Assembly (NCBI GenBank): GCA_041674405.1 | Contig: JBAYVT010000002.1 | Span: 23,158 to 87,157 of the forward strand | From: Patescibacteria group bacterium | GTDB taxonomy: Bacteria; Patescibacteriota; UBA1384; XYA2-FULL-43-10 | DNA length: 64,000 nt | Direction: 5' to 3' | In this document: in pieces, positions 11,371-53,438 of the stretch | Layout: each line of letters starts with the position of its first letter | Numbering within the stretch: position 1 is the first letter of the stretch | Program-made: the position numbers and the translations under genes | The notes under the pieces: generated by a model | The model's database searches: none | The model's input: only the letters and a program-made list of their open reading frames with translations | What the model was told of the DNA's origin: nothing

Positions 11371-11372
11371 AA

Positions 11373-15937: not shown

Positions 15938-15961
15938 GACGGCAGCAGAGGGTGTGGGACG

Positions 15962-16114: not shown

Positions 16115-16167
16115 AAAACTACCTCCTGGTCCTTGATTCCCTCTTGCATTTTATATATCACTTTAGA

Positions 16168-17999: not shown

Positions 18000-18071
18000 A
18001 GAACTCCTTAAAAATTATTCATATACGATAATATACGATATATAAAAATAGATCAAATTGATTGAAATAGC

Positions 18072-18461: not shown

Positions 18462-18498
18462 GAAACTCCTAAAGTGCCTTAATATTTTTGGCCACCTA

Positions 18499-18538
18499 AT
18501 TAAAACAAAAACAAACAGCTGTTTGTTTTTGTTTTAAT
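18499..18538. repeat. 40-nt perfect AT-rich palindrome centred on cagctg; possible bidirectional terminator or protein-binding site
   Basis: attaaaacaaaaacaaacag|ctgtttgtttttgttttaat verified as its own reverse complement. Lies between the PfkB-kinase stop and the start of the ASCH-like gene. Confidence 0.6.
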
Positions 18539-18556
18539 ATTTAGAATATACCCTTA

Positions 18557-21566: not shown

Positions 21567-21727
21567 ATTCCCTCACTTTTACAATTAACCATATTTTACC
21601 ATTGTAAATTTTTACCGTAAATAGATCATGGCGGAGTTCTGTTCGTTTTGATAAAATTAATGTGCGTTCAAAATATTGCGATTTAAAATCAGATTTATAA
21701 TTTTTATCTCTGATTGACGGAGGGGTT

Positions 21728-25092: not shown

Positions 25093-25114
25093 CTAAAATT
25101 TCAGGAGATAGATC

Positions 25115-26362
25115 ATGAGTTCATCAGTTCCCAAAATTGAAGGACACGCTACTTTTTACGCCCATCTTCGTGCCGGAAAAGTTGACAAGGCCAGAATTAT
25201 TGGCCTTGATGGAGATCGGTTTGTTGAAAAAATATTATTCGGGCGCAGCTATATGGAAGTACCAGTAATTACCTCTCGCATCTGTGGTATATGCCCCGTA
25301 ATTCACAATGTTACCTCAACCAAAGCTGTGGAAAATGCTCTCGATATCAAGGTTTCCGAACAAGTAGAAACACTGCGGAAACTAATGCTCTGTGGCCAGA
25401 TGGTTCAGAGCCACTCGCTTCATCTATACCTTCTGGTTCTTCCCGATTTCATGGGAATGTCTTCCTCTTTCGAGCTTCAAAAAAAGCACCCGGATATTTT
25501 TGCCGATGCAGTTGCCCTAAAATCATATGCCGATAGTATTATTGAGATAATCGGAGGCAGGGCAGTTCATCCGGTTTCGAACGTACCTGGCGGTTTCAAA
25601 AAATTTCCGGAAATTTCTGAATTACGGAAATTACTGGAAGAAAGTAAAAAGATGACCGATCTTGGGATTAAAACATTAAAGCTTTTTCAGTCATTTAATT
25701 ATCCTGAAATTTCCCGCAAGATAATTTACTCGGCGTTGTCTGACCTGAATGAATATGCTTTCTATGGCGGAGAAATCAAGACCACGAGCGGTGAGAATTT
25801 TAAAGCAAAAGATTATAAAAAATATATTTACGAAGAAATTCTGCCATATAATCGTGCGAAATTTGGAACGCTCAAGGGCAAAGAAATGATGGTTGGCGCA
25901 ATTGCCCGGATTAATCTCAACAAGAAACAATTGGAAAAAGAAATTGGAAGTTTGAAGGAACTTGGTGTAGGTGAAGAGCTGTCCGATAATCCATTCGGTA
26001 ACATAATTGCCCAAGCAATTGAAAACTATTATTTTATCGTAAAATCAGAAGCGATAATTGAAAAATTAATTAAAGAGGGTATTTCCGAAGAGTCAATAGT
26101 TGAACCAAAAAAAATTGATGAAGGAGTTGCTGCTTGCGAAGCACCGCGTGGAACGCTGTTTCACTACTACAAATTTGACAAAGAAGGTATGCTTGAAAAG
26201 TGTGATATTGTTACGCCAACCGTACAAAATCTGCCAGCATTGGAATATGACATGAAAAAACTCGGCCCCTTTCTCAAGGACTTGGACGAAACAGAGAGAA
26301 CAGAAATGATTGAGATGCTTATTCGTTCATATGACCCATGCATCACTTGCGCCACACATTAA
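25115..26362 (+). CDS. [NiFe] hydrogenase large (alpha) subunit, group-3-like
   Basis: 415 aa. N-terminal Ni-binding motif RICGICPVIH, C-terminal DPCITCATH followed directly by the stop. Confidence 0.9.
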   Translation: MSSSVPKIEGHATFYAHLRAGKVDKARIIGLDGDRFVEKILFGRSYMEVPVITSRICGICPVIHNVTSTKAVENALDIKVSEQVETLRKLMLCGQMVQSHSLHLYLLVLPDFMGMSSSFELQKKHPDIFADAVALKSYADSIIEIIGGRAVHPVSNVPGGFKKFPEISELRKLLEESKKMTDLGIKTLKLFQSFNYPEISRKIIYSALSDLNEYAFYGGEIKTTSGENFKAKDYKKYIYEEILPYNRAKFGTLKGKEMMVGAIARINLNKKQLEKEIGSLKELGVGEELSDNPFGNIIAQAIENYYFIVKSEAIIEKLIKEGISEESIVEPKKIDEGVAACEAPRGTLFHYYKFDKEGMLEKCDIVTPTVQNLPALEYDMKKLGPFLKDLDETERTEMIEMLIRSYDPCITCATH

Positions 26363-26468
26363 TACAGAAATGAATAGCCCCAAAGGGGACCGTTCGGGTC
26401 GAATCTGAACCAATAGCAAATATACGAATTATTAGTAAATTAACCATCAGTATATTAGCAATCGATTT

Positions 26469-27350
26469 ATGAATGCAATCATTGAAATCAAAAAACTGAC
26501 AAAATATTATGGCAAAACCCTCGGGATTAAAAGCCTTGATTTGGATGTAATTGAAGGAGAAATATTTGGTTTTATCGGGCCAAATGGCGCTGGCAAATCT
26601 ACAACGATCAGGCTTTTGCTAGATTTAATTCGGCCAACAGCGGGAAGTGCAAAAATTTTTGGCAAAGATATCCACCGCCATAGTGTGGAGCTTAAACAAG
26701 ATATCGGCTATTTGCCAGGAGAAATATTTTTGCCGGAAAATCTCACCGGTAAAAGCTGTATTAATTATTTTAAATCCTTCAAGGAAACAATTGATGACAG
26801 ATATCTTAAAGATTTAAAATCTCGTTTTGAATTTGATGATAAGAAAAAGATTTCCCAGTATTCCAAAGGCAATAAGCAAAAATTAGCAATAATTTTAGCC
26901 CTGATGCACAAGCCGAAACTCCTAATTCTAGACGAACCGACAAGCGGGCTCGACCCCTTAAACCAGCAAGAATTTTACAAGGTTATCACCGAAACAAAGG
27001 AGTGGAGAACAACAACTTTTTTCTCAACTCATATTTTGGATGAGGCTGAATTTCTTTGCGATCGAGTCGGAATCATTAAGGATGGCCGTCTGCTCCAGAT
27101 TGAAGACATCGACAAATTTAAAGAAAAAAATATTCGTGAAATAAATCTGGAAACCACCGCAGATATTCCTCTTTCGGCCTTGAAAATTGATGGCGTCGAA
27201 AAGACGGAAAAAACTGATCATGGCTATCGCCTAATCACCAAGGGCCATAACGGCGAATTGATAAAAATCATTTCGAAATTTGCAATCGATGACATTAAAA
27301 TATCCGAACCATCGCTTGAAGAAATATTTATGCATTTTTACGAAAAATAA
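26469..27350 (+). CDS. ABC transporter ATP-binding protein
   Basis: 293 aa. Walker A GPNGAGKST, signature YSKGNKQK, Walker B LLILDEP. Confidence 0.92.
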   Translation: MNAIIEIKKLTKYYGKTLGIKSLDLDVIEGEIFGFIGPNGAGKSTTIRLLLDLIRPTAGSAKIFGKDIHRHSVELKQDIGYLPGEIFLPENLTGKSCINYFKSFKETIDDRYLKDLKSRFEFDDKKKISQYSKGNKQKLAIILALMHKPKLLILDEPTSGLDPLNQQEFYKVITETKEWRTTTFFSTHILDEAEFLCDRVGIIKDGRLLQIEDIDKFKEKNIREINLETTADIPLSALKIDGVEKTEKTDHGYRLITKGHNGELIKIISKFAIDDIKISEPSLEEIFMHFYEK

Positions 27351-27447
27351 CTAATAGCTAGAAACTAAAATGTAAAATCTAAGGATGGGTCGTTAAATAA
27401 TTGTTTTGATAAAATATGGTTTTAAGTTTTAACATTTAAGTTATTAC

Positions 27448-28251
27448 ATGGATAATATGATCGCAATAATGTACAGAAAATTTATTGACCAAGCGATTTC
27501 ACTTCTATATTATTTTGGCGGCCTACTCGCCTACTCCTGGATGATGATCGCCATGTTTCCAACAATGAAGACGGCAGATCTGGCCGGTATTTACAACCAA
27601 TTTCCCAAAGAATTTCTAAAGTTTTTTGGCGCCAACGGGATTGAAAGCATGGGAACGGTAGAAGGTTTTTTATCTATAGAATTTCTTTCGCTGTTTTTTA
27701 TACTAATTATCGCTTTTTATATCGGCTCGTCCGCCGGATCAACCATAGCTGGCGCAATCGAAAAAAGGACAATGGATTTTCAGCTATCACAGCCAATTTC
27801 TCGGGCTAAGCTTTTACTCAGTGAGACAATCGTCGGGCTCCTCAACACTGCACTTTTGGTATTTGCCACTTCAGGCAGTATCTATATTCTTGCAAAGGCA
27901 TACGATGTTTCAATGAGCACTCGGGGAATCTTCGTTTTTGCTTTTGTGGCGATAATATTCTTATGGGCATTTTACGGGTTAGCAGTTTTGATTTCTTCCA
28001 TCTTGCGCAGCAAAATCACCGTTGCCTCGATAACGGTATCTATTATCATGGGCTTGTATATATTGAATGCTCTTTCGAAAATCGTGGATAAACTGGCAAA
28101 GATCGAAAAATACACATTGTTTAATATGTATAATCCACAAAAACTTTTGACCGATCACATCATAAACTGGCACCAGATCGAATTCTTGCTTTTAGTTCTT
28201 GTGGTTGGAATAATTAGTTCAATATTGATATTTAATAATAAAGATATCTAG
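27448..28251 (+). CDS. ABC-2-type transporter permease
   Basis: 267 aa with about 6 hydrophobic helices, directly downstream of the ABC ATPase. Confidence 0.7.
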   Translation: MDNMIAIMYRKFIDQAISLLYYFGGLLAYSWMMIAMFPTMKTADLAGIYNQFPKEFLKFFGANGIESMGTVEGFLSIEFLSLFFILIIAFYIGSSAGSTIAGAIEKRTMDFQLSQPISRAKLLLSETIVGLLNTALLVFATSGSIYILAKAYDVSMSTRGIFVFAFVAIIFLWAFYGLAVLISSILRSKITVASITVSIIMGLYILNALSKIVDKLAKIEKYTLFNMYNPQKLLTDHIINWHQIEFLLLVLVVGIISSILIFNNKDI

Positions 28252-28305
28252 CTATTTGGTTAACGAGATCGGCGATTCGTATAAAATTTATCCGTTCGCC
28301 ATATT

Positions 28306-29094
28306 TTATGGTTTCCTAGAAACGAAAACTAATCCGATCGGGTAGGTTTTTGGAAACTTAGGTTGTTTTTCAAGAAGTTCGGCGGTTACTTCCGGCTCTA
28401 ACATTTTTTCAACCACAAACCCCGCTTTAATCAAAGAATTAAAATAATCAGAAATCGGCCGTTGATAATGTTCAATCTCGTAAACCTTTTGGTATTTTTG
28501 AGCAACATCAACATCCCGAATCTTACTGTTGTCCATTGTAAATTTCGAGTATCCCCTACTAAAATACCCTTTCGATCCCCGAATGGTCCTCTCTTTCCCG
28601 TCGGCTTGTCCCCGCAAATAGGTAACGAGATCCCATACAGGGTGAGTGATTGCAAACAAAAACCGTCCTCCGTTTTTCAAGGTTTTAAAAGCCTGGGACG
28701 TAACAAAGTCAATCTCTTCGAGTTCGTTCAGCAAGAAACCTGAAAAAATTACATCTACGGAATTCGGTTTTATTTTCCAGGGTTTGGTAACATCTTGTTC
28801 AATAAATTCGGCTATATTGGTCTGAACTCTTTTTCTCGCAAAATCCAAATTATGGGGAGATATGTCGATTAGAATTAGTCGATCTGGGTTCTGACCCTCA
28901 ATTTGCGAACTGAAATAACCGTTGCCGCACCCCAAATCAACCACCGTCTTCCCGTTTAACGTTCCAATCTCAGATAATAATTGCGGGTTGAGCACATATT
29001 GTTTGTAGACCCCGCCATTATCTCCGGTCGCTTCGTTCCAAAAACTCGCAAATTCAGGATCTAAATATGCAGAAATCGCATTATTCTGTGTCAT
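28306..29094 (-). CDS. Class I SAM-dependent methyltransferase
   Basis: 262 aa. Motif I VVDLGCGNGYF, LIDIS. Confidence 0.8.
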   Translation of the reverse strand: MTQNNAISAYLDPEFASFWNEATGDNGGVYKQYVLNPQLLSEIGTLNGKTVVDLGCGNGYFSSQIEGQNPDRLILIDISPHNLDFARKRVQTNIAEFIEQDVTKPWKIKPNSVDVIFSGFLLNELEEIDFVTSQAFKTLKNGGRFLFAITHPVWDLVTYLRGQADGKERTIRGSKGYFSRGYSKFTMDNSKIRDVDVAQKYQKVYEIEHYQRPISDYFNSLIKAGFVVEKMLEPEVTAELLEKQPKFPKTYPIGLVFVSRKP

Positions 29095-29314
29095 GGTGGT
29101 CCATTTCTTTATGGGTTTTTATAAATTTTAAGTTCTCTTTTGCTTCGGTTTCGGAGATTTTTGAAAGTGCCCTGCCGTCGTGCATCAAAATCCAATCCCC
29201 GACTTTAGGATTTTGAACTAGAGAAATATCGGCCTTGTATTCTTCACCCTCATAATCAAAAAGGGCAATTGCCCCTTTGATTTCTTTGATTTTTCCAGGT
29301 ATTGCTAAACACAT
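29081..29314 (-). CDS. hypC: Hydrogenase maturation chaperone, HypC/HupF family
   Basis: The track ORF starts 7 codons early. The functional start is MCLAIPGKI (ATG 29314..29312), the canonical HypC N-terminus, followed by GDWILMHDG. Confidence 0.85.
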   Translation of the reverse strand: MCLAIPGKIKEIKGAIALFDYEGEEYKADISLVQNPKVGDWILMHDGRALSKISETEAKENLKFIKTHKEMDHHDTE

Positions 29315-29370
29315 GGTCACTACACTCCAAATCAAAAATCAAAATTTAAAAATCAAAAAATTGGAATTAT

Positions 29371-30369
29371 TTATTTTGAATTTGTTACCCGCTCCACCAT
29401 ATCCACAAGCCTCTCTGAGTATCCCCACTCGTTGTCATACCAGGCAATTATTTTAACAAGATCTCCACCGATCACGCATGTTAATGGTAGGTCGACTATC
29501 GATGAATATGGATTTTGTTTAAGGTCGCTTGATACCAGCGGCTCTTCTGAAACCTGAATTATTCCTTTGTGGCTGCCATCTGCAGCCTTTTTAAGTGCTT
29601 CATTAATATCATCGACTGAAACTTTTTTGGAAAGAACCGCAACGATATCAGAGAGCGAAACCACCGGGGATGGAACACGGATCGATAAGCCGTCAAATTT
29701 ATTCTTAAGCTTGGGTATTGTCAAAGTCGCTGCTATTGCCGCACCTGTCGTAGTCGGAACAATATTTTGGGCTGCAGCGCGAGCCCGGCGCAGGTCTTTA
29801 TGCGGACCGTCAACCAAATTTTGGTCAGCCGTATAGGAATGAATCGTTGTCATCATTGATTTTTCAACGCCAAATTCATCCTCAATCACCTTCATCACCG
29901 GCGCGATACAATTGGTTGTACAGGAAGCATTTGAGACAATACTCTCGTCATCGTATTTATCAGCATTAGCGCCGATCACGAAAGTCGGAACCGAATCATC
30001 CTTTGCCGGCGCGGACAAAACAACTTTTTTGGCGCCGGCTTCCAAATGGGCTTTTGCCAAATCATTAGTCAAAAATATACCGGTCGACTCGATGACAACA
30101 TCGATATCAAGTACTTTCCATGGCAAAGCTCCCGGATTTTTCTCCGAAAGGTAATGGATTTTCTTGTTATTGACGATAATCTCATTATCAGAAAAGCCAA
30201 CTTCCCGGTCGTAAATACCGTAGCATGTGTCGTATTTTAAAAGATGGGCTTGGGTTTCTGCCGGGCACAGGTCATTTAAAGCGACAAGCTCAACATTCGG
30301 CCGGTCCAAAATTATCTTCGCCGCCGCCCGGCCGATCCGTCCAAAGCCATTAATTGCTACTCGCAGCAT
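29371..30369 (-). CDS. gap: Glyceraldehyde-3-phosphate dehydrogenase
   Basis: The track ORF extends to 30486. The likely start is MLRVAINGFGRIGR at 30369, after aggagg. Active site SNASCTTNC. Confidence 0.95.
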   Translation of the reverse strand: MLRVAINGFGRIGRAAAKIILDRPNVELVALNDLCPAETQAHLLKYDTCYGIYDREVGFSDNEIIVNNKKIHYLSEKNPGALPWKVLDIDVVIESTGIFLTNDLAKAHLEAGAKKVVLSAPAKDDSVPTFVIGANADKYDDESIVSNASCTTNCIAPVMKVIEDEFGVEKSMMTTIHSYTADQNLVDGPHKDLRRARAAAQNIVPTTTGAAIAATLTIPKLKNKFDGLSIRVPSPVVSLSDIVAVLSKKVSVDDINEALKKAADGSHKGIIQVSEEPLVSSDLKQNPYSSIVDLPLTCVIGGDLVKIIAWYDNEWGYSERLVDMVERVTNSK

Positions 30370-31132
30370 CCACCTCCTTCGGGATAACAACGTCACCTTT
30401 AAAACTTTTATTTGCTGCCCAAATGCGGCAGATTTCGACAAATACACTTGCTCTAAGGCTGGCACTGCCAACCAAGACTCCATCAATCAACGGCGATTTA
30501 GCAAAATTTAATATTTTTTCATGGTCTATGCTGCCACCATACAAAATTGGGCTTTCTCGGAATATCACTTCGCGAAGTTTGGCCACTGCTTTTTCTGCAT
30601 GTTCGACCGGTGCGGCATTGTGATTGCCAATTGCCCATACGGGCTCGTAAGCCACAACAATATCCTTGTATTTGTTTTTTGGAACATGAGTCAAGGCCTC
30701 TTCAAGCTGGTCGGCAGCATCGGACAGGGGGGCGCTTTTCGTTTTCTCGCCAACACAAATGATTGGAGACAATCCGTGTTTTAAGGCTGCTAACACTTTT
30801 TCATTAACATCAAAATCTGTCTCGCCAAAATGAGCCCGGCGTTCCGAATGTCCGACAATTACGTATTTGCAAACATCGCGAATCATAATCGGCGAGATTT
30901 CACCGGTGTAAGGACCCTCATCTTCATAAAACATATTTTGGGCCCCTAGGTTAACCTTTCCGTCTCTTTTCAAAATTTCTGATAGTTCAGAAAGCCAGAT
31001 CACTGGCGGGCAGACCACGACCTCGACTCCATCAAGACTGGCAACAGAGTTTCTGATTGAGGTCGCTAAAATATACGCATCAGATGCCCGCGTATACATC
31101 TTCCAGTTCGCAACAACCATCGGCCGTCTCAT
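30350..31132 (-). CDS. tpiA: Triosephosphate isomerase
   Basis: 260 aa. VANWKM, VGHSERR, YEPVWAIG, YGGS. Confidence 0.95.
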   Translation of the reverse strand: MRRPMVVANWKMYTRASDAYILATSIRNSVASLDGVEVVVCPPVIWLSELSEILKRDGKVNLGAQNMFYEDEGPYTGEISPIMIRDVCKYVIVGHSERRAHFGETDFDVNEKVLAALKHGLSPIICVGEKTKSAPLSDAADQLEEALTHVPKNKYKDIVVAYEPVWAIGNHNAAPVEHAEKAVAKLREVIFRESPILYGGSIDHEKILNFAKSPLIDGVLVGSASLRASVFVEICRIWAANKSFKGDVVIPKEVDAASSN

Positions 31133-31151
31133 ATTCCCTCGCTTTAAGAAC

Positions 31152-32180
31152 TTATTTCACTCTTACATTATTATATAGCTTAATAATCATCTTTGCCAAT
31201 TTAGTATTATCGTGGTACAAAGGCTTTTTTTCATCAACCAAATCCGCTCTAGAGATTTTCACTCCAGATATTTTCTCGTTTTCTGTTGTGATATTATAGA
31301 CTTCACCAAGTTTTGATGATTGTTTTGACTTCTTTATTACATGGCTATTTACTAAGCAATAATCAAAAATTTTGCCTGGGGCATGTTTTTTTATTGCTGC
31401 AATGTGATCAGAGACAGAGTAATTTTCTGTCTCTCCTCTCTCGGTTGAAATGTTTGCAATATATATTTTCAGCGCTATTTTGTTAGATAATATGGCTTTT
31501 TTAATTCCAGGTATCAACAGGTTTGGAATTACACTAGTATACAAACTCCCTGGTCCCAAAAGGATCAAATCTGCCTCATTAATCGCCTGGACCGCTTTTT
31601 CATACGCCCTCACTTTGTCTTTATTTAAAAAGACAATATTAATTTTTTTTCCAGCTTGTGGAATCTTATCTTCCCCCAAAATTTTTTTTCCGCCAGCATA
31701 CACAGCACCAATTTTAATATTATCCAGTGTGGCTGGTAAAATTTTTCCCGCCGTGCGAAAAATCGTGGAGGTTGCCTCTATTGCCTGTTCGAATGATCCT
31801 AGATGCTTAGTTAGGGCTGCAATCCAAATATTTCCAAGCGTATGGTTTGATAAGGATTTATTTTTCCCAGGAAATCGATATTCCAATATTTTGGATAATA
31901 TTTCTCCATCTTCCGCCAACGCTGAAATACATTTACGGATATCTCCTGGTGGCAAAATATCAAATTCTTTCCTGATTACTCCCGTGGAAGAGCCGTCATC
32001 AGTCACAGCCACAATTGCTGAAATGTTATTAGAATATTTTTTAAGCCCGGATAATAAAACGGATAAACCCGTGCCACCACCGATTGCGGCAATTTTAATA
32101 TCACTTCCAGCAAGAAGACGAGGGTCGTTAGGCTCGTAAACGAGATTTCTCCACCATGTTTTGAAAAAGCTTTCTCTCAT
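31152..32180 (-). CDS. YvcK/CofD-family gluconeogenesis-factor-like protein
   Basis: 342 aa. IAAIGGGTGLSVLLSGLK, VTDDGSSTG, GPGSLYTS. Confidence 0.85.
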   Translation of the reverse strand: MRESFFKTWWRNLVYEPNDPRLLAGSDIKIAAIGGGTGLSVLLSGLKKYSNNISAIVAVTDDGSSTGVIRKEFDILPPGDIRKCISALAEDGEILSKILEYRFPGKNKSLSNHTLGNIWIAALTKHLGSFEQAIEATSTIFRTAGKILPATLDNIKIGAVYAGGKKILGEDKIPQAGKKINIVFLNKDKVRAYEKAVQAINEADLILLGPGSLYTSVIPNLLIPGIKKAILSNKIALKIYIANISTERGETENYSVSDHIAAIKKHAPGKIFDYCLVNSHVIKKSKQSSKLGEVYNITTENEKISGVKISRADLVDEKKPLYHDNTKLAKMIIKLYNNVRVK

Positions 32181-33439
32181 TTTATCATCCCTTTAGCATG
32201 TAAGTCTCGATAATAAGAAATTGCAAATCTGTGTGCCTCATCACGCAATGCAACAATGTTGTTTTTGATTCCGGGGGTCTTTTCGATATAGCTTTTTACA
32301 TCATGATTCTGAAAGTGTAGCTCGTCTTTGTCACGCTTTGGCCCCTTTGAAATTGAAATAATCGGGGCATGCAAACCTGATTCCGTAAGGACTTTCAGTG
32401 CAGCCTTAAGATGTGTTTCCCCGCCATCAATCACTACCAAATCAGGATCACCCCATTTGTTATTCATTCTGCGCCGTAGAATTTCTGCCATCATCGCGAT
32501 GTCGTTAGCACCATTCACATTTTTGATTTTAAATTTTCGATATTCTTCCGGCGCTTTTTTACCAGAGATAAATACACTCATCGCGCCGACCGCATAGCTG
32601 CCAGAAATATTGGAAATATCGAAACATTCCATTCTTTTGAAATATACTTTGGTGCTATCAAACACATCATCCCGAATTCCCAGCGCCACATCTCGTAAAT
32701 GGTCAAGGGCAGCAACCTGATTTCGTGTTAACGCTGCAACCTCATATCGCTTCTGCCGACTCAATTCTTTCATTTCTTTGTAAAGGGCTTGCTCAACCTC
32801 GGCTTTCTTCCCACGGAGAAAATTTTTAAGATATGTGATGTTTTTGTTATATTGTTTTTTATCTACCCAATCGGCGCAGGGCGCAGTGCAAACACGAATG
32901 TCACCATATATACAAGCACGGCATTTCTTGGCCTGCAGATTATATTTCGTTTTTGAACAATCGCGATAAGGAAAGATTTTCCTCAAATATCGCAATGATT
33001 TTTTAAGTTCCATTCCATTTGGATAGGGGCCAAATAATCTGCCCGCTTTTTTCTCGCGAGCAAACTCTTCGTGCGGTATATCTTTAATTCTTCTCAATCC
33101 AACGCATGGAAATTCTTCTTTTGTGAAATGAATTACAAAAAACGATTTATCATCCTTGAACTGAATATTATATCTTGGCTTAATTTTTTTAATCAGCTCG
33201 GCTTCAAGAATTACCGCCTCAATCTCACTTTCGGTTTCTTTGAAAATTATTTTTCTTGCGTTTGAAACCATTAGATCAATTGACGGACCACGGCCAATCT
33301 CTTTTAAAAAATATGATTTTATCCTACTTTTTAAATTTTTGGCTTTGCCCACATACAAAATATCCCCGTCGGCATTCTGAAACTGATATACCCCCGGGGA
33401 TTTTGGCGCGTAAATTATATAATCCTGTAAACTCTTCAT
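32177..33439 (-). CDS. uvrC: Short UvrC-like excinuclease subunit: GIY-YIG, UVR and endonuclease core, with no C-terminal helix-hairpin-helix region
   Basis: 420 aa. PGVYQFQNADGDILYVGKAKNLKSRIKSYF (GIY-YIG), a UVR-like helix pair around EVEQALYKEMKELSRQKRYEVAA, and ECFDISNISG. The protein ends about 180 aa short of typical UvrC. Confidence 0.78.
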   Translation of the reverse strand: MKSLQDYIIYAPKSPGVYQFQNADGDILYVGKAKNLKSRIKSYFLKEIGRGPSIDLMVSNARKIIFKETESEIEAVILEAELIKKIKPRYNIQFKDDKSFFVIHFTKEEFPCVGLRRIKDIPHEEFAREKKAGRLFGPYPNGMELKKSLRYLRKIFPYRDCSKTKYNLQAKKCRACIYGDIRVCTAPCADWVDKKQYNKNITYLKNFLRGKKAEVEQALYKEMKELSRQKRYEVAALTRNQVAALDHLRDVALGIRDDVFDSTKVYFKRMECFDISNISGSYAVGAMSVFISGKKAPEEYRKFKIKNVNGANDIAMMAEILRRRMNNKWGDPDLVVIDGGETHLKAALKVLTESGLHAPIISISKGPKRDKDELHFQNHDVKSYIEKTPGIKNNIVALRDEAHRFAISYYRDLHAKGMIK

Positions 33440-34674
33440 TTCAATTGCTTAATATATTTCACAACCTCATCTATTTTTATAATTTTCTTTTCTGTTTTTT
33501 TGCGATTTGCTATCTCAACTCCACCGGATTTGAAAGATCGCTCAGAAACAACAATGGTTATCGGACAACCAATCAGATCTGCGTCGGCAAACTTTTCGCC
33601 GGCAGTGATTTCTTCTCTATCGTCATACAACACTTCAATTCCAGCGTCAAGAAGCTCCTTGTAAATCTTCTCTGTTTCCTCATTTTTGTTTAAAGAGATT
33701 AAATTGACACTGAATGGCGCAATGTTTTTCGGCCAGATGATCCCATAATCATCGTGAAATAATTCTACAGCCGTGCCCAAAAGGCGTGTTAGACCAATGC
33801 CGTAACAACCCATTATCATTGCCACTTCTTTACCCTCAGAGTTCAGAACTTTAGCATTCATTTGGGATGAATATTTATTTGAAAGAGGAAAAATATTACC
33901 AACTTCAATTGAATTGGCCATAACAATTTTACCATCGCATTTCGGGCATTTATCACCCTCAGATACTTTCGCAATTTCTCTGTTTTGGGCAAAATCACAC
34001 TTGTTGCAATAAAAGATTGTATCTTCACCGGAAGTCGCCAAAGCTTGAAATTCATGCGAAAATTCTGAGAATACTCCACCGCTAGCCTCGACCAATTTGG
34101 TCTCAATTCCACATCGGGAAAAAGCTCTAAAATACGCTTTGATCACTTCTTGATAGTACTTTTCAAAATCTGCTTCATCAATATGAAAGCTATACATATC
34201 TTTCATAATAAATTCTCGCCCACGAAGGAGACCTGACTTAGCTCTCGGCTCATTCCTGAACTTGGTTTGTATTTGATAAAGAGATATTGGCAAATCTTTG
34301 TATGAAGAAATATGATGCCTCACAATGTCGATGATCTGTTCTTCATGAGTTGCGCCAAGACCGATCTCCTTATTTCTTGAGTCCTTAAACTGATACATCA
34401 CTTCAGACATCTTACTCCAGCGACCAGTTTCTTCCCATAATTCTCTTGGCTGAAGCACATTCATTAGAAGCTCTTGTCCCTCAACCTTATTCATTTCATC
34501 TCGAATAATATTTTCAATTTTAGAATAAACACTGAAACCAAGCGGAAGAAGTGCATACGCCCCCGCCATGTGTTTTTCAACAAAACCACCGCGAGCTAAA
34601 AGAGAGGCATTTATCGAATCAGAATCAGCCGGAGTTTCCTTATAAGTTTTGATAAGGCTTTTAGATCTTTTCAT
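33436..34674 (-). CDS. proS: Prolyl-tRNA synthetase (compact form without an INS editing domain)
   Basis: 412 aa. Class II motifs (FRNEPRAKSGLLRGREFIMKD, GCYGIGLTRL), a Zn-ribbon-like insert CNKCD...CPKCDG, and a C-terminal anticodon-binding domain. Confidence 0.85.
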   Translation of the reverse strand: MKRSKSLIKTYKETPADSDSINASLLARGGFVEKHMAGAYALLPLGFSVYSKIENIIRDEMNKVEGQELLMNVLQPRELWEETGRWSKMSEVMYQFKDSRNKEIGLGATHEEQIIDIVRHHISSYKDLPISLYQIQTKFRNEPRAKSGLLRGREFIMKDMYSFHIDEADFEKYYQEVIKAYFRAFSRCGIETKLVEASGGVFSEFSHEFQALATSGEDTIFYCNKCDFAQNREIAKVSEGDKCPKCDGKIVMANSIEVGNIFPLSNKYSSQMNAKVLNSEGKEVAMIMGCYGIGLTRLLGTAVELFHDDYGIIWPKNIAPFSVNLISLNKNEETEKIYKELLDAGIEVLYDDREEITAGEKFADADLIGCPITIVVSERSFKSGGVEIANRKKTEKKIIKIDEVVKYIKQLK

Positions 34675-34680
34675 TCCCCG

Positions 34681-35769
34681 CTACTTTCTTATTAAATGTA
34701 TTATATCACCATACGTGATCAATGCGATTAGAAGAAGCAAAAACACAAAGCCAACCGAGTGAATAATGTTTTCGACATACTCGCGAATTAATCTCCGACG
34801 AGCAACCATTTCAATTAAAATAAAAAGTATTCTGCCCCCATCAAGTGCAGGTATGGGCAAGATGTTCAAAATTGCCAGATTAATAGAAAGCAATGCAACA
34901 AATTGAAGAAGGGCAAGGATTCCCATTCTTACAAACAAACCGGTATAAGTATAAATTGCGACAGGGCCACCAACTCCTTCGCCAGCTTGTCCTGTAGTAA
35001 ATAAATTATGCAAGTAATTTCCCAAAAACTCAAACGTAAAAATACCGATACGATATTCTTCGCGAGCCGCAACCCAGGGAGCATCATACAGCGGTACTCT
35101 GATTATGCTTCTCTCAATCAGTCCAACTCCCAAAGGTGCATCGGAAGATCCGGACAGAGAAACCTCTTGTTTATTTATCGCCCCATCTCTTTCGTATACT
35201 ACAGTAACCTTTTGGCCATAATAAGCTTGAGTAAAATTGGTTAGATCTGAGAAACTTCCCACATTTTGAGTGGTGTTGCTAGAATCAATTTCTTTAATTA
35301 TATCCCCGGCAGCCAAACCAGCAGACTTAGCTGGAGAATTATTTTCGAAATCGGCAATGATTATTTGATTAGATAGTCTTTTGCCAGGGACTTGATCCGA
35401 AGGAGAGATAACGGGAGACATGCCCACAGAAAAACCGACAACCAAAAGAACCCATGCCAGTACAATATTCATCAATATTCCAGCAAGAGAGATAATTAAC
35501 CTTTTATAAGCCGGTTGATTTTCCAGTGCGCGCTTGCTTTTACTCTCCTCCAACTCACCGAGCATTTTTACATAACCGCCGAGAAAAAAGAAGGTATTTA
35601 TAGTATATGTCGTCTCGCCCTTCTTTATCGAAAAAAGTCTCGGTGGAAAACCAAAAGCAAATTCTTCAACTTTCACTCCGGCTTTTTTTGCAGCGATAAA
35701 ATGCCCGAATTCATGTGACAGAACAAGAAGCGCCAGAATTATAATAAATGTTACAATGGTCAATATCAT
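34681..35769 (-). CDS. rseP: Site-2 (M50) intramembrane metalloprotease, RseP-like, with a PDZ domain
   Basis: 362 aa. HEFGH at the N-terminus, a PDZ-like AGLAAGDIIKEID, and the second motif NILPIPALDGG. Confidence 0.88.
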   Translation of the reverse strand: MILTIVTFIIILALLVLSHEFGHFIAAKKAGVKVEEFAFGFPPRLFSIKKGETTYTINTFFFLGGYVKMLGELEESKSKRALENQPAYKRLIISLAGILMNIVLAWVLLVVGFSVGMSPVISPSDQVPGKRLSNQIIIADFENNSPAKSAGLAAGDIIKEIDSSNTTQNVGSFSDLTNFTQAYYGQKVTVVYERDGAINKQEVSLSGSSDAPLGVGLIERSIIRVPLYDAPWVAAREEYRIGIFTFEFLGNYLHNLFTTGQAGEGVGGPVAIYTYTGLFVRMGILALLQFVALLSINLAILNILPIPALDGGRILFILIEMVARRRLIREYVENIIHSVGFVFLLLLIALITYGDIIHLIRK

Positions 35770-35773
35770 CTAA

Positions 35774-36331
35774 TTAGATCTTCATTACTTCAGATTCTTT
35801 TTCAGTGATCATTAAATCAACTTCTTTATTTTTCCGCTCTATTAGCTCATTCAGATCTTTTTCTGCTTGATATTTATCATCCTCAGTCGCTTCATTATTT
35901 TTAATAAGGCCCTGAACACGCGACCAAGCATCGCCACGAATTGTGCGAAGTGACACCTTGGCTTCTTCTCCGGTTTTTTTAACCTGTTTGGAAAGTTCGA
36001 TTCTGCGTTCTTCTGTAATTGGTGGCAAACTCAAGCGGACAAACGTTCCATCGTTTACTGGAGTTAGGCCAAGGTCTGCATTTCTGATTGCGGTTTCAAT
36101 ATCTCCAAGAGAATTTCGATCAAAGGGTTTGATTTGAATTAGGCTTGCTTCAGGAACAGAAATGCTAGCCAACTCTTTGAGCGAAGTATTCATGCCATAA
36201 TACGAAACTAGAATATCTTCAACCAACGAACCTTGCGCTCGGCCCGTGCGAATTTTTGTAAGATCGGATTTCAGGTTTACGATAGATGCTGACATTTTTA
36301 CATCGGCATCTTTCAAAATATCTGCAATCAT
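35774..36331 (-). CDS. frr: Ribosome recycling factor
   Basis: 185 aa. Typical RTGRA, PPITEERR, IRGDA. Confidence 0.96.
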   Translation of the reverse strand: MIADILKDADVKMSASIVNLKSDLTKIRTGRAQGSLVEDILVSYYGMNTSLKELASISVPEASLIQIKPFDRNSLGDIETAIRNADLGLTPVNDGTFVRLSLPPITEERRIELSKQVKKTGEEAKVSLRTIRGDAWSRVQGLIKNNEATEDDKYQAEKDLNELIERKNKEVDLMITEKESEVMKI

Positions 36332-36366
36332 CAGCCTCCTTATTAATTCAATAAAATTTTATCACT

Positions 36367-36960
36367 TTAGTTGCCGAGTTCATAGCGGGTAAATCGTGAG
36401 ATAACTATATTTTCTCCGATTTTGGCAATCAAATCATTGAGAAGATTTCCAATTGTTTTGTCCGGATCTTTAATAAATGGCTGAGACAAAAGGCAAATCT
36501 CTTCGAAATACTTTCCCATTTTACCATCAACAATTTTGGCCGCTATTTCTTCCGGTTTACCAGAGGCTTTTACTTCTTCCATGAAAATCGCTTTTTCTCT
36601 GTCAGCTTCTTCGGCTGGGACTGCATCGGAATTTACATATTTTGGATTCATTGCCGCGATATGAAGAGCAACATCATGAACGAATGTTTTAAATTCATCG
36701 TTTCTAGCGACAAAATCAGTTTCTGTGAGAACCTCAAGGATCACCCCGATTTTTGCATCATGGCAGTAGCACTCAATAATCCCCGATTTTGTTTCGCGTT
36801 CTGCTTTTTTAGCTGCCTTTGACATTCCTTTTTTGCGCAATATCTCGATTGCCAAATCCTCATCCCCACCAGCTTCAATAAGAGCTGATTTAACTTCCAT
36901 CATTGGAAGACCAGTTTTGGCTCTGAGTTCTGCAATTTCTTTAGCTGTAATATTTGCCAT
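36367..36960 (-). CDS. tsf: Elongation factor Ts (short form)
   Basis: 197 aa. LRAKTGLPMMEVKSAL, TETDFVARN. Confidence 0.95.
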   Translation of the reverse strand: MANITAKEIAELRAKTGLPMMEVKSALIEAGGDEDLAIEILRKKGMSKAAKKAERETKSGIIECYCHDAKIGVILEVLTETDFVARNDEFKTFVHDVALHIAAMNPKYVNSDAVPAEEADREKAIFMEEVKASGKPEEIAAKIVDGKMGKYFEEICLLSQPFIKDPDKTIGNLLNDLIAKIGENIVISRFTRYELGN

Positions 36961-36974
36961 GTTCCTCCAAAAAA

Positions 36975-37679
36975 TTAATTTTTATCGTTAGCCACCGCCC
37001 CTTTGTTTTCTTTGATCGTTTTTGCAAATAAATTTACAAATAGGGCAATGGATTTTGTGGCATCGTCGTTAGCTGGAATAGGATAGTCGACTAGATTCGG
37101 ATCAGCATTGGTATCTACTATACCAATTGTCGTAACCCCAGATTGAGTTGCTTCTTTTATGGCATTTTTTTCATCATGAACCCCAACCAGGATGATTACG
37201 TCAGGCTGTTTGGAAAGGCCGACAAGTCCTCCGACCAATCTCTCGCCTTTTTCAATTTCTTTTGTAAGTTTTACTTTGTCGCGTTTTTTCATCTCTGCAA
37301 ATTCTGGGCTCGATACGATCAATCTGGCTCTTTCCAATTTCTTGAAAGCTTTCTGAACTGTGTTGAAATTTGTTAACATTCCACCCAGCCAACGAGAAAC
37401 AATGTAAGGCATACCACAATCCTGAGCGCCTTTTTTGACAATCTCTTGGGCCTGTTTTTTGGTACCAACAAATAGGACCGTTTTCCCTTCTTTGGCCGCT
37501 TCAGCTAAAAAATTCATCGCGTCGGAAAGCTGTGATTGCGTTTTTTCCAGATCAATAACATGGACACCAGATTTGGCGCCAAAAATAAATTTGTCCATTT
37601 TGGGGTGCCAACGACTGGTTTTGTGCCCAAAATGAACGCCTGCTTCGAGCATCTCTCGAAGTGTTGGTGTGGTAACCAT
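36975..37679 (-). CDS. rpsB: 30S ribosomal protein S2
   Basis: 234 aa. LLEAGVHFGH, RWLGGMLTNF, DTNADP. Confidence 0.97.
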   Translation of the reverse strand: MVTTPTLREMLEAGVHFGHKTSRWHPKMDKFIFGAKSGVHVIDLEKTQSQLSDAMNFLAEAAKEGKTVLFVGTKKQAQEIVKKGAQDCGMPYIVSRWLGGMLTNFNTVQKAFKKLERARLIVSSPEFAEMKKRDKVKLTKEIEKGERLVGGLVGLSKQPDVIILVGVHDEKNAIKEATQSGVTTIGIVDTNADPNLVDYPIPANDDATKSIALFVNLFAKTIKENKGAVANDKN

Positions 37680-37824
37680 AAACGATTCTCCTTTTTAACC
37701 TCCGCCTTACGATTTACCTCGGCCCGAAGATTTCGGGACGGGCAAAGGATTTTTTAATCTCGGCTCGCCCAAAGGACGAGACGGATGAGAAAGGCGTGTG
37801 AATTTATTAACAATTAATTACTTT
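37680..37824 (-). promoter_or_regulatory. Long GC-rich structured 5' leader of rpsB-tsf (candidate r-protein autoregulatory leader)
   Basis: About 145 nt between the candidate promoter and the rpsB ATG. Hairpins cccgaa/gat/ttcggg (37723..37737) and ctcgccc/aaa/ggacgag (37764..37780, one G-U pair). Markedly more GC-rich than the flanks. Confidence 0.4.
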
Positions 37825-37830
37825 TAAGAC

Positions 37831-37858
37831 ATTATCATATTTTTTGGATAATTTCAAT
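37831..37858 (-). promoter_or_regulatory. Candidate sigma70-type promoter for rpsB
   Basis: Minus strand: TTGAAA (37858..37853), 16-nt spacer, GATAAT (37836..37831), preceded by TAT. Similar TATGATAAT / TATCATAAT boxes lie upstream of tig and clpP. Confidence 0.45.
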
Positions 37859-37877
37859 ATTTAACCCGAACAATCCC

Positions 37878-37906
37878 TTGACATAATTTAAAAATATTGT
37901 TAAAGT
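37878..37906 (+). promoter_or_regulatory. Near-consensus promoter driving the ncRNA-tRNA-Ile unit
   Basis: TTGACA (37878..37883), 17-nt spacer ending in an extended-minus-10 TGT, then TAAAGT (37901..37906). Confidence 0.6.
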
Positions 37907-37912
37907 CGTTTT

Positions 37913-38093
37913 TGTCGGTTTCGCGGGAGATCGAAACCTGACGGGGCGAGGGTTCAAGGAGTCCGCTCCAGTCTCCCGCCTAATGGTGGCGAAGCGAAAG
38001 CTTATTGCCGAGAGGCAATCGCAAGTAACCAATCTTGCCGCCATCCCAAACATTAAACCGCCCATGGGCGGTTAAGCTTGCCTCTTTGGAGGC
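37913..38093 (+). ncRNA. Candidate structured non-coding RNA (class not recognised), co-transcribed upstream of tRNA-Ile
   Basis: GC-rich in an AT-rich intergenic region.
- Hairpin 37914..37942, whose loop CGGGAGA (37924..37930) is complementary to TCTCCCG (37972..37978).
- GGAG/UCCG/CUCC hairpin at 37958..37969.
- A 10-bp helix 37983..37992 / 38035..38044 encloses hairpins AGC-GAAA-GCU (37993..38002) and UUGCC-GAGA-GGCAA (38005..38018).
- 18-nt palindrome 38056..38073.
- Hairpin 38080..38093 abutting the tRNA. Confidence 0.5.
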
Positions 38094-38094
38094 A

Positions 38095-38171
38095 GGGTAC
38101 GTAGCTCAGTTGGATAGAGCGTCTCCCTGATAAGGAGAAGGCCGGGGGTTCAATCCCCTCCGTACCCACCA
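38095..38171 (+). tRNA. tRNA-Ile (anticodon GAT), CCA encoded
   Basis: Hand-folded cloverleaf. Acceptor GGGTACG/CGTACCC, D arm GCTC-AGTTGGATA-GAGC, anticodon arm TCTCC-CTGATAA-GGAGA, variable AGGCC, T arm GGGGG-TTCAATC-CCCTC, discriminator A plus CCA. 77 nt. Confidence 0.95.
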
Positions 38172-38176: not shown

Positions 38177-38215
38177 CCCTCTCTGCGCCTCGCGCAGAGA
38201 GGGTTTCCCGTTTTT
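38177..38215 (+). terminator. Intrinsic terminator after tRNA-Ile
   Basis: 11-bp stem ccctctctgcg / cgcagagaggg, followed by tttcccgttttt. Confidence 0.8.
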
Positions 38216-38219: not shown

Positions 38220-38248
38220 TTGATTTTAAGTCAATATTCTGTTAATAT
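38220..38248 (+). promoter_or_regulatory. Candidate promoter for rpmE, implying a leaderless or near-leaderless mRNA
   Basis: TTGATT (38220..38225), 17-nt spacer ending in TGT, then TAATAT (38243..38248). The ATG at 38258 is only 9 nt downstream, and no Shine-Dalgarno sequence is present (ttcgtt). Confidence 0.45.
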
Positions 38249-38257
38249 AATTTCGTT

Positions 38258-38551
38258 ATGAAAAAAGTCATTCATCCAACTTATTATCCTGAGGCTAAGG
38301 TCACATGTGCATGTGGTGCAACTTTTACTATGGGATCAACCGAAAAAGAGATTCATGTAGAAATCTGCTCCGCCTGTCACCCATACTTTACCGGCAAAGA
38401 AAAACTGGTTGATACCGCTGGCCGCGTCGATAAATTTAAAGAGCGAATGGAAGCAGCCAAGAAGTTCAAAGAAACTAAAGAACTGAAGAACAAAAGAACC
38501 GAAGAACCAAAAGAGAATACTTCCAAAAACGAAAAATCTGAAGATAAATAG
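38258..38551 (+). CDS. rpmE: 50S ribosomal protein L31 (Zn-ribbon type) with a Lys/Glu-rich C-terminal tail
   Basis: 97 aa. [12 protein letters not shown]...C.aCHPYFTGK. Confidence 0.95.
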
Positions 38552-40568: not shown

Positions 40569-40593
40569 AAAATCCGCCATCGGGCGGATTTTT
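40568..40593. terminator. Bidirectional intrinsic terminator between convergent prmC and htrA
   Basis: aaaaatccgcc atcg ggcggattttt: a stem flanked by an A-run and a T-run. Confidence 0.8.
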
Positions 40594-40645
40594 CATATAC
40601 TTGTGATAATTTGCGTAAAGGATTATGCACGCTACTCTGATTATC

Positions 40646-49465: not shown

Positions 49466-49508
49466 TCCAAGTTGGACTCATACACCGACATACAGGCTAC
49501 AGGAGGAG

Positions 49509-50102
49509 ATGTTCGTGATCGACAAAGTTAGAGAGTTCAAACCATGGGAGAAGCCGAGGGCTGACGGGAAGCACAGCATCAGCTTCTTGATCGGGTTTCG
49601 TGCCGTACTTGCGATCCCGATCCAGCACTATGACGCCGTTCTCGGCGGTCTCTACTGCGTCGCCGTCCTCCTGCTTAGAGAGGATGGGGACCATGAGATC
49701 AGAGACCGGTCGAGCGGGCTCTTGGAAATCTTGGCAGGCCGAGAACAGGATAACCTGCCACTTTCCGATCCGGCCAAGCTCGAGATGTTGGTCGGGGTCC
49801 TGTCTTCGATCTCATCCAACTCGACCGCCTACCGGCTGTACAGGAACACGGCAACCCGCAGGGTCGTGATCGTCCGCGAGGAAGGCGAAATCGGCGAAGG
49901 GGCTACAGAGAAACCTGAGAAAAGACCAGCAGGCATCGCTGCCTGGTCCGTCGAAAGGTTCAATGAATGTCTCGCTCGTGGCCACCACCGGTTCGAGGGA
50001 CGCATTCTGGTGAACAACCGAGGGGGCCAGCCTTACGAGCTGATGGTGTGCACTGACTGCAGAGTCACGATCGCAGCGATGCAAGTGATCCCGGGCAAAT
50101 AG
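49509..50102 (+). CDS. Orphan protein A of the G+C-rich island (about 195 aa)
   Basis: AGGAGG at 49501..49506. The start is ATG 49509 (2-nt spacing) or, more plausibly, GTG 49515 (8-nt spacing). 73 of the first 100 codons end in G/C (hand count), unlike host genes. C-terminal Cys/His pattern NECLARGHHRF...MVCTDCRV. No family recognised. Confidence 0.7.
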   Translation: MFVIDKVREFKPWEKPRADGKHSISFLIGFRAVLAIPIQHYDAVLGGLYCVAVLLLREDGDHEIRDRSSGLLEILAGREQDNLPLSDPAKLEMLVGVLSSISSNSTAYRLYRNTATRRVVIVREEGEIGEGATEKPEKRPAGIAAWSVERFNECLARGHHRFEGRILVNNRGGQPYELMVCTDCRVTIAAMQVIPGK

Positions 50103-50126
50103 CCCAAGAAGGAGGATAGAGCCGAG

Positions 50127-50160
50127 CGGCCCCGATTCAATTCGGGGTCGTTCTGCGTTT
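50127..50160 (+). terminator. Intrinsic terminator after island ORF A
   Basis: Stem cggccccga / tcggggtcg (one G-U pair) with loop ttcaat, then ttctgcgtttt. Confidence 0.6.
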
Positions 50161-50177
50161 TATCCACAGCAATATTT

Positions 50178-50207
50178 TTGACAGCGGTATATATCAAGTG
50201 GTAAGTC
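50178..50207 (+). promoter_or_regulatory. Possible promoter in front of island ORF B
   Basis: Perfect TTGACA (50178..50183), but only a weak -10 (TGgTAAGTC around 50199..50207). Confidence 0.35.
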
Positions 50208-50246
50208 TAAAATAGATCGTATTACTTCCGCATCGGGGTGATTTTG

Positions 50247-50639
50247 ATGGGAAGTTCGTCAGGTCGGCGTCGACGCCCGTCTTCGGTATGGAAGCAAGCA
50301 TACCGCGCGAATGGTAAAGCTCACAAGCTCACCAAGTCGGGCGAAGACGAGAAGGCTGCCGAGGCGTTTTACCAGAAGGTAGGCTGTGTCTGCGAGACAT
50401 CGCTTACCCCAGGCTTTACGCAATGGCAATGGGATCCTGTCGTAGAAGCCGTCTCGGTATCTCTAGCACACCCGCCGAAGAAAGAACGGCACAAGCGACT
50501 CCATGTTCCTCCAGACGTACTGGAGGAATACATCAGAGGGAACGGCTTTTCAAGCCGCGAAAGGAACTTCCTTCTGAAGCGCCTTCGGCAAGTACTTCGG
50601 TACCGAGAGAAAGGCGCTCCCCAACCTTACGTTCGGTAG
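50247..50639 (+). CDS. Orphan protein B of the G+C-rich island (about 130 aa, basic)
   Basis: ATG 50247 lies 6 nt after ggggtg. The track start GTG 50238 is an alternative. Arg/Lys-rich (GRRRRPSS, KKERHKRLH, LKRLRQVLRYREK). G+C-rich codon usage. No family recognised. Confidence 0.6.
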   Translation: MGSSSGRRRRPSSVWKQAYRANGKAHKLTKSGEDEKAAEAFYQKVGCVCETSLTPGFTQWQWDPVVEAVSVSLAHPPKKERHKRLHVPPDVLEEYIRGNGFSSRERNFLLKRLRQVLRYREKGAPQPYVR

Positions 50640-50671
50640 GCAACCCTACTCTATCAACCCCGCAGTAACCT

Positions 50672-50710
50672 CGCGCGGGCCATCCGTGGCTCGCGCGTTC
50701 CCCGTTTTTT
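50672..50710 (+). terminator. Strong intrinsic terminator closing the island
   Basis: 11-bp stem cgcgcgggcca / tggctcgcgcg (one G-U pair) with loop tccg, followed by ttccccgtttttt. Confidence 0.75.
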
Positions 50711-50721
50711 AGTACAAAATT

Positions 50722-53438
<2,717 letters not shown>

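Follow-up and report, generated by a model that had tools for sequence, protein, structure and literature searches.

What is the GC-rich, strongly folded segment between the divergent rpsB and rpmE genes of a Patescibacteria metagenome-assembled genome? We examined it in a stretch of 64,000 nucleotides of that genome (the window), in which it directly precedes a gene for isoleucine transfer RNA, tRNA-Ile(GAU). An earlier interpretation (the sequence-only reading) had seen in it one coherent RNA of a new and open class. On balance, and with modest confidence, we read it as a cis-acting 5' leader, built from tRNA-derived modules, of an operon that has a single tRNA (in order: promoter, leader, tRNA-Ile(GAU), and terminator). 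It is most likely a lineage-specific structured pre-tRNA leader, not a conserved free-standing family of noncoding RNA (ncRNA). The unity proposed for the segment found no support; it is modular instead, with what we read as a decayed tRNA, a mini-cloverleaf, and two spacer hairpins.

A structured segment between a promoter and tRNA-Ile

The segment is part of a predicted transcription unit on the plus strand that includes tRNA-Ile. The unit opens with a sigma-70-type promoter (37878..37906; TTGACA, a 17-bp spacer, and TGnTAAAGT, in which the -10 element TAAAGT has an upstream TG). This promoter scored 10/12, the top score in the region, in agreement with its earlier description as near-consensus. 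Judging from the promoter, transcription would start at approximately 37912..37914, and the leader would be about 181-187 nt long. The G+C content of the segment is 56%, versus 40% in the window and the genome. The gene for tRNA-Ile(GAU) (38095..38171) has an encoded CCA and was found by ARAGORN and by the Rfam tRNA model (72.6 bits, 38095..38168). It is followed by a probable intrinsic terminator of the operon (38177..38215), with a 12-bp stem, a 3-nt loop, and then UUUCCCGUUUUU. A simple, strict terminator scan skipped this hairpin because its U-run is interrupted. The hairpin is nevertheless there, as the sequence-only reading had it, and an equivalent hairpin with a T-run follows the tRNA operon in relatives.

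The helices that the sequence-only reading had traced in the leader are all present where it placed them. The 5'-terminal hairpin (37914..37942), seen both in the sequence and in the minimum free energy (MFE) structure, has 10 bp, one bulged U, and the loop CGGGAGAU. Within this loop, CGGGAGA (37924..37930) is the exact complement of UCUCCCG (37972..37978), the pairing that had been proposed as a pseudoknot. Downstream is a GGAG-UCCG-CUCC hairpin (37958..37969), and then a long-range helix (37983..37992 with 38035..38044; 8 Watson-Crick and 2 G-U pairs) that encloses three hairpins, AAGC-GAAA-GCUU, AUUGCC-GAGA-GGCAAU, and GCAAG-8 nt-CUUGC. A perfect 18-nt palindromic hairpin follows (38056..38073; AACCGCCCATGGGCGGTT, that is, AACCGCCC-AU-GGGCGGUU); it is terminator-like and without a U-tract. 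The last feature, a 6-bp hairpin UGCCUC-UUUG-GAGGCA (38079..38094; sequence and MFE structure), adjoins the 5' end of the tRNA, so that position -1 is paired.

The stability of the fold is unevenly distributed along the segment. The MFE of the whole segment was -76.6 kcal/mol (z = -3.24), and none of 200 shuffled sequences folded as well. In the MFE structure, independent hairpins form a chain with one four-way junction. The junction region, the mini-cloverleaf described below, folded at -27.6 kcal/mol (z = -4.0), with the MFE structure making up 49% of the ensemble, and the last 46 nt with the two hairpins before the tRNA (38049..38094) had a z of -3.9. The 5' third (37908..37982) folded no better than chance (z = -0.7; 48 of 200 shuffles did equally well). 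Forcing the acceptor-type pairing of the proposed pseudoknot, which competes with a helix of the MFE structure, cost only +2.1 kcal/mol (-74.5 versus -76.6).

Because the minus strand of the segment folds about equally well (z = -3.45), the assignment to the plus strand rests on the promoter, the tRNA, the terminator, and five G-U pairs. An open reading frame (ORF) of 76 aa on the minus strand (37835..38065) was rejected as a gene: it has no Pfam match, spans the promoter, and is not conserved.

The rpsB-rpmE slot in relatives

The promoter is conserved in some relatives, and the sequence downstream of it is different in each. We recovered the rpsB-rpmE spacers of nine relatives by looking up the exact protein sequences of the nearest S2 and L31 homologues. 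Five of the nine (L008, L009, L013, L095, and L096) have the same promoter, TTGACA-17-TAnnnT, in the corresponding position, and they also keep the first ~12 nucleotides of the transcript (YTYTTTTGTTG...). The other four (L006, L097, L098, and L099) lack a tRNA operon at this place; in L100 the spacer holds an unrelated insert. The closest relative is L009 (86% S2 identity); the relatives without the operon include close ones, L006 (81% S2 identity) and L097 (84% L31 identity). The sequence-only reading had looked to relatives for conservation and covariation of its helices. For the whole unit this largely failed, since only the promoter and the first ~12 nt were kept where the operon was found at all.

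The five operons differ in their tRNAs and in what lies between them. In L096, a 25-nt leader, the 5' part of which pairs with a trailer around tRNA-Ile, is followed by tRNA-Ile, a hairpin, and tRNA-Pro(CGG). L095 has a 165-nt leader, tRNA-Arg, an aberrant His-like tRNA whose anticodon loop has 8 nt, a mini-cloverleaf, and then tRNA-Ile and tRNA-Ala, each preceded by a hairpin. The leader in L008 is of the L095 type and precedes an aberrant tRNA whose anticodon loop has 6 nt, a mini-cloverleaf, a hairpin, and tRNA-Ile. L013 also has the L095-type leader, followed by a tRNA-Asn with a palindromic insert in the D loop. In L009 a different leader precedes tRNA-Pro(CGG); a mini-cloverleaf and a CCGCC..GGGCGGUUA hairpin come next, followed by a miniaturised tRNA-Ile-like gene, which was not called by ARAGORN. 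Because the content of the operon differs each time and close relatives have none, the rpsB-rpmE slot is, as far as these sequences indicate, a fast-evolving small tRNA operon that is confined to a narrow clade.

Several tRNAs of the sister operons are aberrant (L008:2523-2597(-), L095:391-469(+), L013:1-60(-), and L009:289-352(-)). The His-like tRNA, which has a G-1, is the one with an anticodon loop of 6 nt in L008 and 8 nt in L095. The tRNA-Asn(GUU) of L013 contains a 16-nt palindromic hairpin, UCCGCCAGCUGGCGGA, inside its D loop. The tRNA-Ile-like gene of L009 is 64 nt long, with a 5-nt anticodon loop and a tetraloop T arm, and its acceptor stem and ACCA are intact.

The metagenome contigs of several relatives (L010, L011, L012, L013, and L005) end within 200-600 nt of rpsB on its upstream side, at the tRNA operon or close to it. 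These breaks suggest assembly trouble, caused by repeats or strain variation, and the comparative data are limited thereby.

The 5' third aligns with tRNAs

The 5' third of the segment resembles the tRNAs of sister operons. In local alignment, 37915..37985 scored 31 against the tRNA-Pro(CGG) of L096, versus 18 +- 3.7 for shuffled sequences (4 of 500 reached the score). The alignment starts in the anticodon arm, continues across the T arm, and reaches the 3' strand of the acceptor stem; it places the hairpin 37914..37942 on the anticodon arm. The 5' third also has an exact match of 12 nt to the T arm of this tRNA-Pro. The 5' third also aligns with the tRNA-Arg of L095 (1 of 500 shuffles) and with the window's own tRNA-Ile (3 of 500).

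Because of its alignment with the tRNA-Pro(CGG) of a sister operon, we read the 5' third as a decayed tRNA in which the D arm and the pairing of the T stem have been lost. The 5' hairpin is probably the former anticodon arm of a tRNA-Pro(CGG)-like gene. The putative relic (37924..37981) comprises a 7-bp acceptor-like pairing (37924..30 with 37972..78), a T-arm motif CGAGGGTTCAAG (37947..37958), the GGAG-UCCG-CUCC hairpin, and C-CUA at the place of NCCA. Its 7-bp length and position suggest that the pairing proposed as a pseudoknot is a vestigial acceptor stem.

A tRNA-shaped mini-cloverleaf without an anticodon

The mini-cloverleaf (37983..38048, 61-66 nt) has the shape of a tRNA and is not a tRNA. 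In order, it has a 7-bp helix, 2 nt (CG), a 4-bp arm, 1 nt (A), a 5-bp arm, 3-4 nt (UCG), a 4-5-bp arm, no further linker, and a C-CCA end. The acceptor-type helix, the canonical linkers, and the 3' NCCA agree with a tRNA in shape only. The closing helix is the 7-bp GGUGGCG/CGCCAUC in the MFE structure and 10 bp in the register of the sequence-only reading, and the arms are AAGC-GAAA-GCUU, (A)UUGCC-GAGA-GGCAA(U), and GCAAG-UAACCAAU-CUUGC. There is no 7-nt anticodon loop and no T-loop UUCRA motif; GAAA is at the place of the D loop, GAGA at that of the anticodon loop, and UAACCAAU forms the third loop. GAAA and GAGA are GNRA tetraloops, and the module cannot decode.

Relatives have modules of similar design. 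In L008 and L095, modules of ~55 nt occupy the corresponding place, with the first tRNA on one side and the hairpin that precedes tRNA-Ile on the other, and fold as a 7-bp helix, GGUGGUG/CACCGCC, with three short arms. Among the modules of L008, L095, and L009 the helices are kept, with two double compensatory changes. Because the helices of the relatives' leaders and mini-cloverleaves are kept through compensatory changes, structured flanks appear to be a maintained feature of these precursors.

The whole leader might be neutral debris of decaying, redundant tRNA genes that serves no role, its structure consisting of leftover tRNA stems and terminator hairpins. The presence and content of the operon vary among close relatives, the slot holds aberrant tRNAs (anticodon loops of 6 and 8 nt, an insertion in a D loop, and a tRNA-Ile in miniature), and the structure of the 5' third is within chance, all as expected of debris. 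However, debris should gather mismatches, and the cloverleaf and both 3' hairpins are perfect helices with stable tetraloop caps; the analogous modules of relatives, moreover, show compensatory changes. We consider this explanation unlikely, while granting it some weight. Because its helices are perfect, the cloverleaf appears to be more than debris, and its regularity hints that it is selected for something we cannot name.

Could the mini-cloverleaf itself be the product? Like those of L008 and L095, it might be an anticodon-less, tRNA-shaped small RNA that is excised by RNase P and 3' processing, ends in CCA, and works in trans, for instance by serving tRNA-binding enzymes as a decoy or substrate. 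Its tRNA-like connectivity followed by C-CCA and its very well-defined fold are consistent with this idea, as are the counterparts in L008, L095, and L009, with their 7-bp helix, three arms, and compensated helices. Yet the window version has no homologue of measurable sequence identity and did not match the tRNA model, and ARAGORN, mitochondrial mode included, called neither it nor the modules of the relatives. The CCA of the L008 and L095 modules depends on which of two registers is chosen, and the L009 module has no CCA. A released, trans-acting RNA is thus in our view distinctly unlikely. We hold a more general version to be slightly more doubtful again. In that version, the Patescibacteria of this clade would co-transcribe with their tRNAs a class of anticodon-less, tRNA-shaped mini-RNAs (~55-66 nt, closed by a 7-bp helix, with three short arms that often end in tetraloops, and in some cases with an encoded CCA) that are released by the tRNA-processing machinery and have a non-decoding function. 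The module at 37983..38048 would be one member, and the 165-nt leaders of sister operons would be relatives with expanded arms.

The leaders of sister operons

These leaders, which we call type A (160-175 nt; L008:2604-2768(-), L095:140-296(+), and L013:66-238(-)), have no Rfam match. Their closing helix has 13 bp, GUUGUGAGYGRCG/CGYCRYUCACAAC, starts at the 5' end of the transcript, and encloses three to four long arms. Among the three sequences, 13 of 38 predicted pairs have changed on both sides. As a conserved structured RNA, the type-A leader is a stronger candidate than the leader in the window.

The promoter and the position are common to the two kinds of leader, which may also have in common a closing helix containing ..UGGCG/CGCCAU.., YCAMAAC as the 3' flank, and three enclosed arms with tRNA-like linkers. 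They differ in the arms, which are ~40 nt each in type A versus 12-18 nt in the cloverleaf, and in the closing helix, which in type A has 13 bp and begins at the 5' end of the transcript. The 3' strand and flank of the mini-cloverleaf had 24 of 30 identities with the type-A closing helix (2 of 200 shuffles did as well). Aligned by hand, the closing helices were all paired, but this is circular, as the helices were picked for pairing, and in the window the 5' strand is shifted by ~70 nt. A covariance model (R1) built from L008, L095, and L013, a weak test with three sequences only, gave no match to the window with default filters; with filters off, 37983..38055 scored 2.2 bits (E = 0.28). Because of this low score, the mini-cloverleaf can be called only a possible homologue of either module type of the relatives.

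The 3' hairpins and the order of modules

The hairpins between the mini-cloverleaf and tRNA-Ile have counterparts in sister operons. L009 has a homologous hairpin, CCGCCTTCGGGCGGTTA, at the same place as the palindrome of the window. GC hairpins with different stem sequences are 0-2 nt upstream of tRNA-Ile, tRNA-Ala, and tRNA-Pro in L008, L095, and L096, and such tRNA-abutting hairpins appear to be a regular feature of the precursors of this clade.

The order of modules in the window mirrors that in L009. The window has the Pro relic, the cloverleaf, the palindromic hairpin, the second hairpin, and tRNA-Ile; L009 has tRNA-Pro, its mini-cloverleaf, the same hairpin, and a degenerate tRNA-Ile. 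The decay is reciprocal, with Pro decayed in the window and Ile decayed in L009. The two spacers are weakly alignable (z = 2.3; 16 of 500 shuffles).

The palindrome raises the possibility that the leader is regulatory, an attenuator or riboswitch-like element that governs read-through into tRNA-Ile by means of two alternative folds and this hairpin. The 5' third does have two near-isoenergetic folds (the MFE structure and that with the forced pairing), and the core of 38056..38073, CCGCC-N4-GGGCGG, recurs in a genuine bidirectional terminator at 40574..40587. However, no U-tract follows 38056..38073, and the alternative folds leave that hairpin uninvolved. Nor did we find a conserved core resembling a ligand pocket or an Rfam cis-regulatory match; this hairpin was the sole terminator-like one in the leader, and the leader is not conserved among relatives. 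A regulatory role of this kind is very unlikely.

The terminator that shares this core is a textbook bidirectional intrinsic terminator, AAAAAUCCGCC-AUCG-GGCGGAUUUUU (40569..40595), between the convergent genes prmC and a trypsin/PDZ protease gene.

Searches for known families and further copies

The segment matched no known RNA family, in keeping with the sequence-only reading, which had recognised no hallmark motif of the common classes that it considered. We searched Rfam 15 on both strands, at gathering thresholds for the whole window and at E<=10 for sub-regions of 651 and 192 nt. The window, the sub-regions, and four relatives had tRNAs and nothing else. The tRNA model RF00005 (gathering threshold 29 bits) reported nothing in 37905..38096 even at E<=10 and scored only 38095..38168. 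ARAGORN, in relaxed and mitochondrial modes, called only tRNA-Ile in the window, and neither the mini-cloverleaf nor the relic.

These searches bear on whether the segment is a diverged, trans-acting housekeeping RNA of the candidate phyla radiation (CPR) that Rfam misses, such as a minimal RNase P RNA, 6S RNA, or signal recognition particle (SRP) RNA. Its size is close to that of 6S RNA. To our knowledge, every bacterial RNase P RNA is much longer than ~180 nt, and ~250 nt or more is expected. None of these families matched at E<=10 in the 192-nt query or in relatives, including the 6S models and the RNase P models RF00010 and RF00011 (the P4 helix with conserved CR-I/CR-V was sought by eye only), and the fold is not a rod that opens into a large bubble at its centre. 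At standard thresholds, RNase P RNAs of the CPR often escape detection (PMC8172020). The segment is, however, missing from close relatives, which is impossible for an essential RNA, and we regard a housekeeping RNA as extremely unlikely. On grounds of size, motifs, lack of matches, and absence in close relatives, we rejected the readings as RNase P RNA, 6S, SRP, transfer-messenger RNA, and 5S.

No further copy of the leader was found. BLAST of the leader against the window, all fetched loci, and a phage collection gave no second copy, and the covariance model of the relatives' leader did not recognise the window. Three pattern scans of viral contigs gave two chance matches in high-GC coding DNA and otherwise none. 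A search of genome contigs with RpsB gave only actinobacterial loci of 43% identity or unrelated loci, and a search of metagenome contigs with an RpsB alignment gave relatives of <=55% identity among the matches listed.

A leader made of inherited modules

We propose that the leader consists of modules inherited from a longer tRNA operon: the relic, the mini-cloverleaf, the terminator-like hairpin, and the tRNA-abutting hairpin. The transcript would begin with a helix at its very 5' end, as in all relatives. Transcription would pass the relic, the cloverleaf, the two hairpins, and tRNA-Ile and would stop at the terminator. The helices near +1 and the stable GC hairpins would protect and shape the precursor in cis. 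RNase P would cut at 38095, and possibly also at the cloverleaf, and the leader would be discarded. The sequence-only reading had likewise predicted that a cut at 38095 would detach the segment.

Several points weigh against this proposal. The exact leader is in one genome only, as L004, with a leader that is 100% identical, is the same organism. The alignment of the relic with tRNAs reaches significance only at the ~1% level, and this without correcting for the eight comparisons. The similarity of the cloverleaf to the modules of relatives is weak, both in the alignments (2/200 and 16/500) and in the covariance model (2.2 bits, E = 0.28). Finally, the cloverleaf is too regular for simple decay, with 22 bp, no mismatch, two GNRA loops, and a z of -4.0.

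Other features of the locus

On the minus strand the neighbouring genes are proS, rseP, frr, tsf, and rpsB; on the plus strand they are rpmE, prfA, and prmC. The 5' untranslated region (UTR) of rpsB (37680..37806, minus strand) contains two conserved boxes, a 5' one, AAUUCACACGCCYYUCUCA, and a 3' one, GURRGGCGGAGG, which immediately precedes the Shine-Dalgarno sequence. Both boxes are at the same place in L006, L008, L009, L010, L013, L096, L097, L099, and L100. A long-range helix, CGCCYY/RRGGCG, connects them; across 10 loci, 4 of its 6 pairs show compensatory changes, and the hairpins between the boxes vary. The element has no Rfam match and is a candidate S2 autoregulatory leader in Patescibacteria.

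On the other side of the tRNA operon, only 9 nt separate the end of the rpmE promoter (TTGATT-17-TGnTAATAT, within 38220..38260) from the ATG, and a Shine-Dalgarno sequence is absent. The mRNA for L31 thus probably has little or no leader. The arrangement is similar in L008, L009, L095, and L096.

At 49500..50732 is a 1.2-kb island of 54-57% G+C in the 40% G+C window. It contains two ORFs (221 and 133 aa) without a Pfam match and has no Rfam match at E<=1. The island may be a foreign or lineage-specific insert.

Comparison with known systems and implications

Bacterial polycistronic pre-tRNAs have structured 5' leaders and spacers that are removed by RNase P. The leader in the window resembles these in that it is promoter-proximal, is predicted to be co-transcribed with the tRNA, ends exactly at the tRNA 5' end, and belongs to a unit with a terminator after the tRNA. 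It differs in being unusually long and GC-rich, in its tRNA-shaped modules, and in the hairpin that pairs position -1.

Arrays or operons of tRNAs with pseudo-tRNAs have been described, for example the Anabaena trn operon (PMC8421152), as have prokaryotic tRNA gene fragments (PMC9897764). Like those, the operon of this clade is a variable cluster in which some members are non-canonical or decayed and the content differs between close relatives. In contrast, it is tiny (1-4 tRNAs), occupies a fixed rpsB-rpmE slot, and has relics that keep perfect helices. The fragments in those cases come from the integration of elements or from the activity of clustered regularly interspaced short palindromic repeats (CRISPR), neither of which was seen at this locus; no mobile-element genes were seen in the rpsB-rpmE spacer.

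The t-elements of plant mitochondria are tRNA-like structures that serve as processing signals for RNase P and RNase Z (PMC1920247). The mini-cloverleaf is similarly a non-decoding tRNA shape within a longer transcript beside a gene, and by analogy its recognition by tRNA-processing enzymes is plausible. It differs in being bacterial and upstream of a real tRNA, not an mRNA, and the analogy is one of function, not of homology.

What is new here, on our reading, is an unusually long, tRNA-derived, structured pre-tRNA leader. If our interpretation is correct, the finding is instructive but ordinary: a GC-rich folded island in an AT-rich, reduced genome would be a pre-tRNA leader made of tRNA relics, and the case is a caution for the discovery of ncRNAs by eye or by folding energy. 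If the mini-cloverleaves are stable and CCA-ended, they would be a bacterial case of tRNA-shaped, non-decoding RNAs that come from the tRNA-processing pathway. For the organisms themselves, a leader of this origin would show that tRNA operons turn over rapidly in CPR bacteria, with reciprocal decay of tRNA-Pro and tRNA-Ile in sister genomes.

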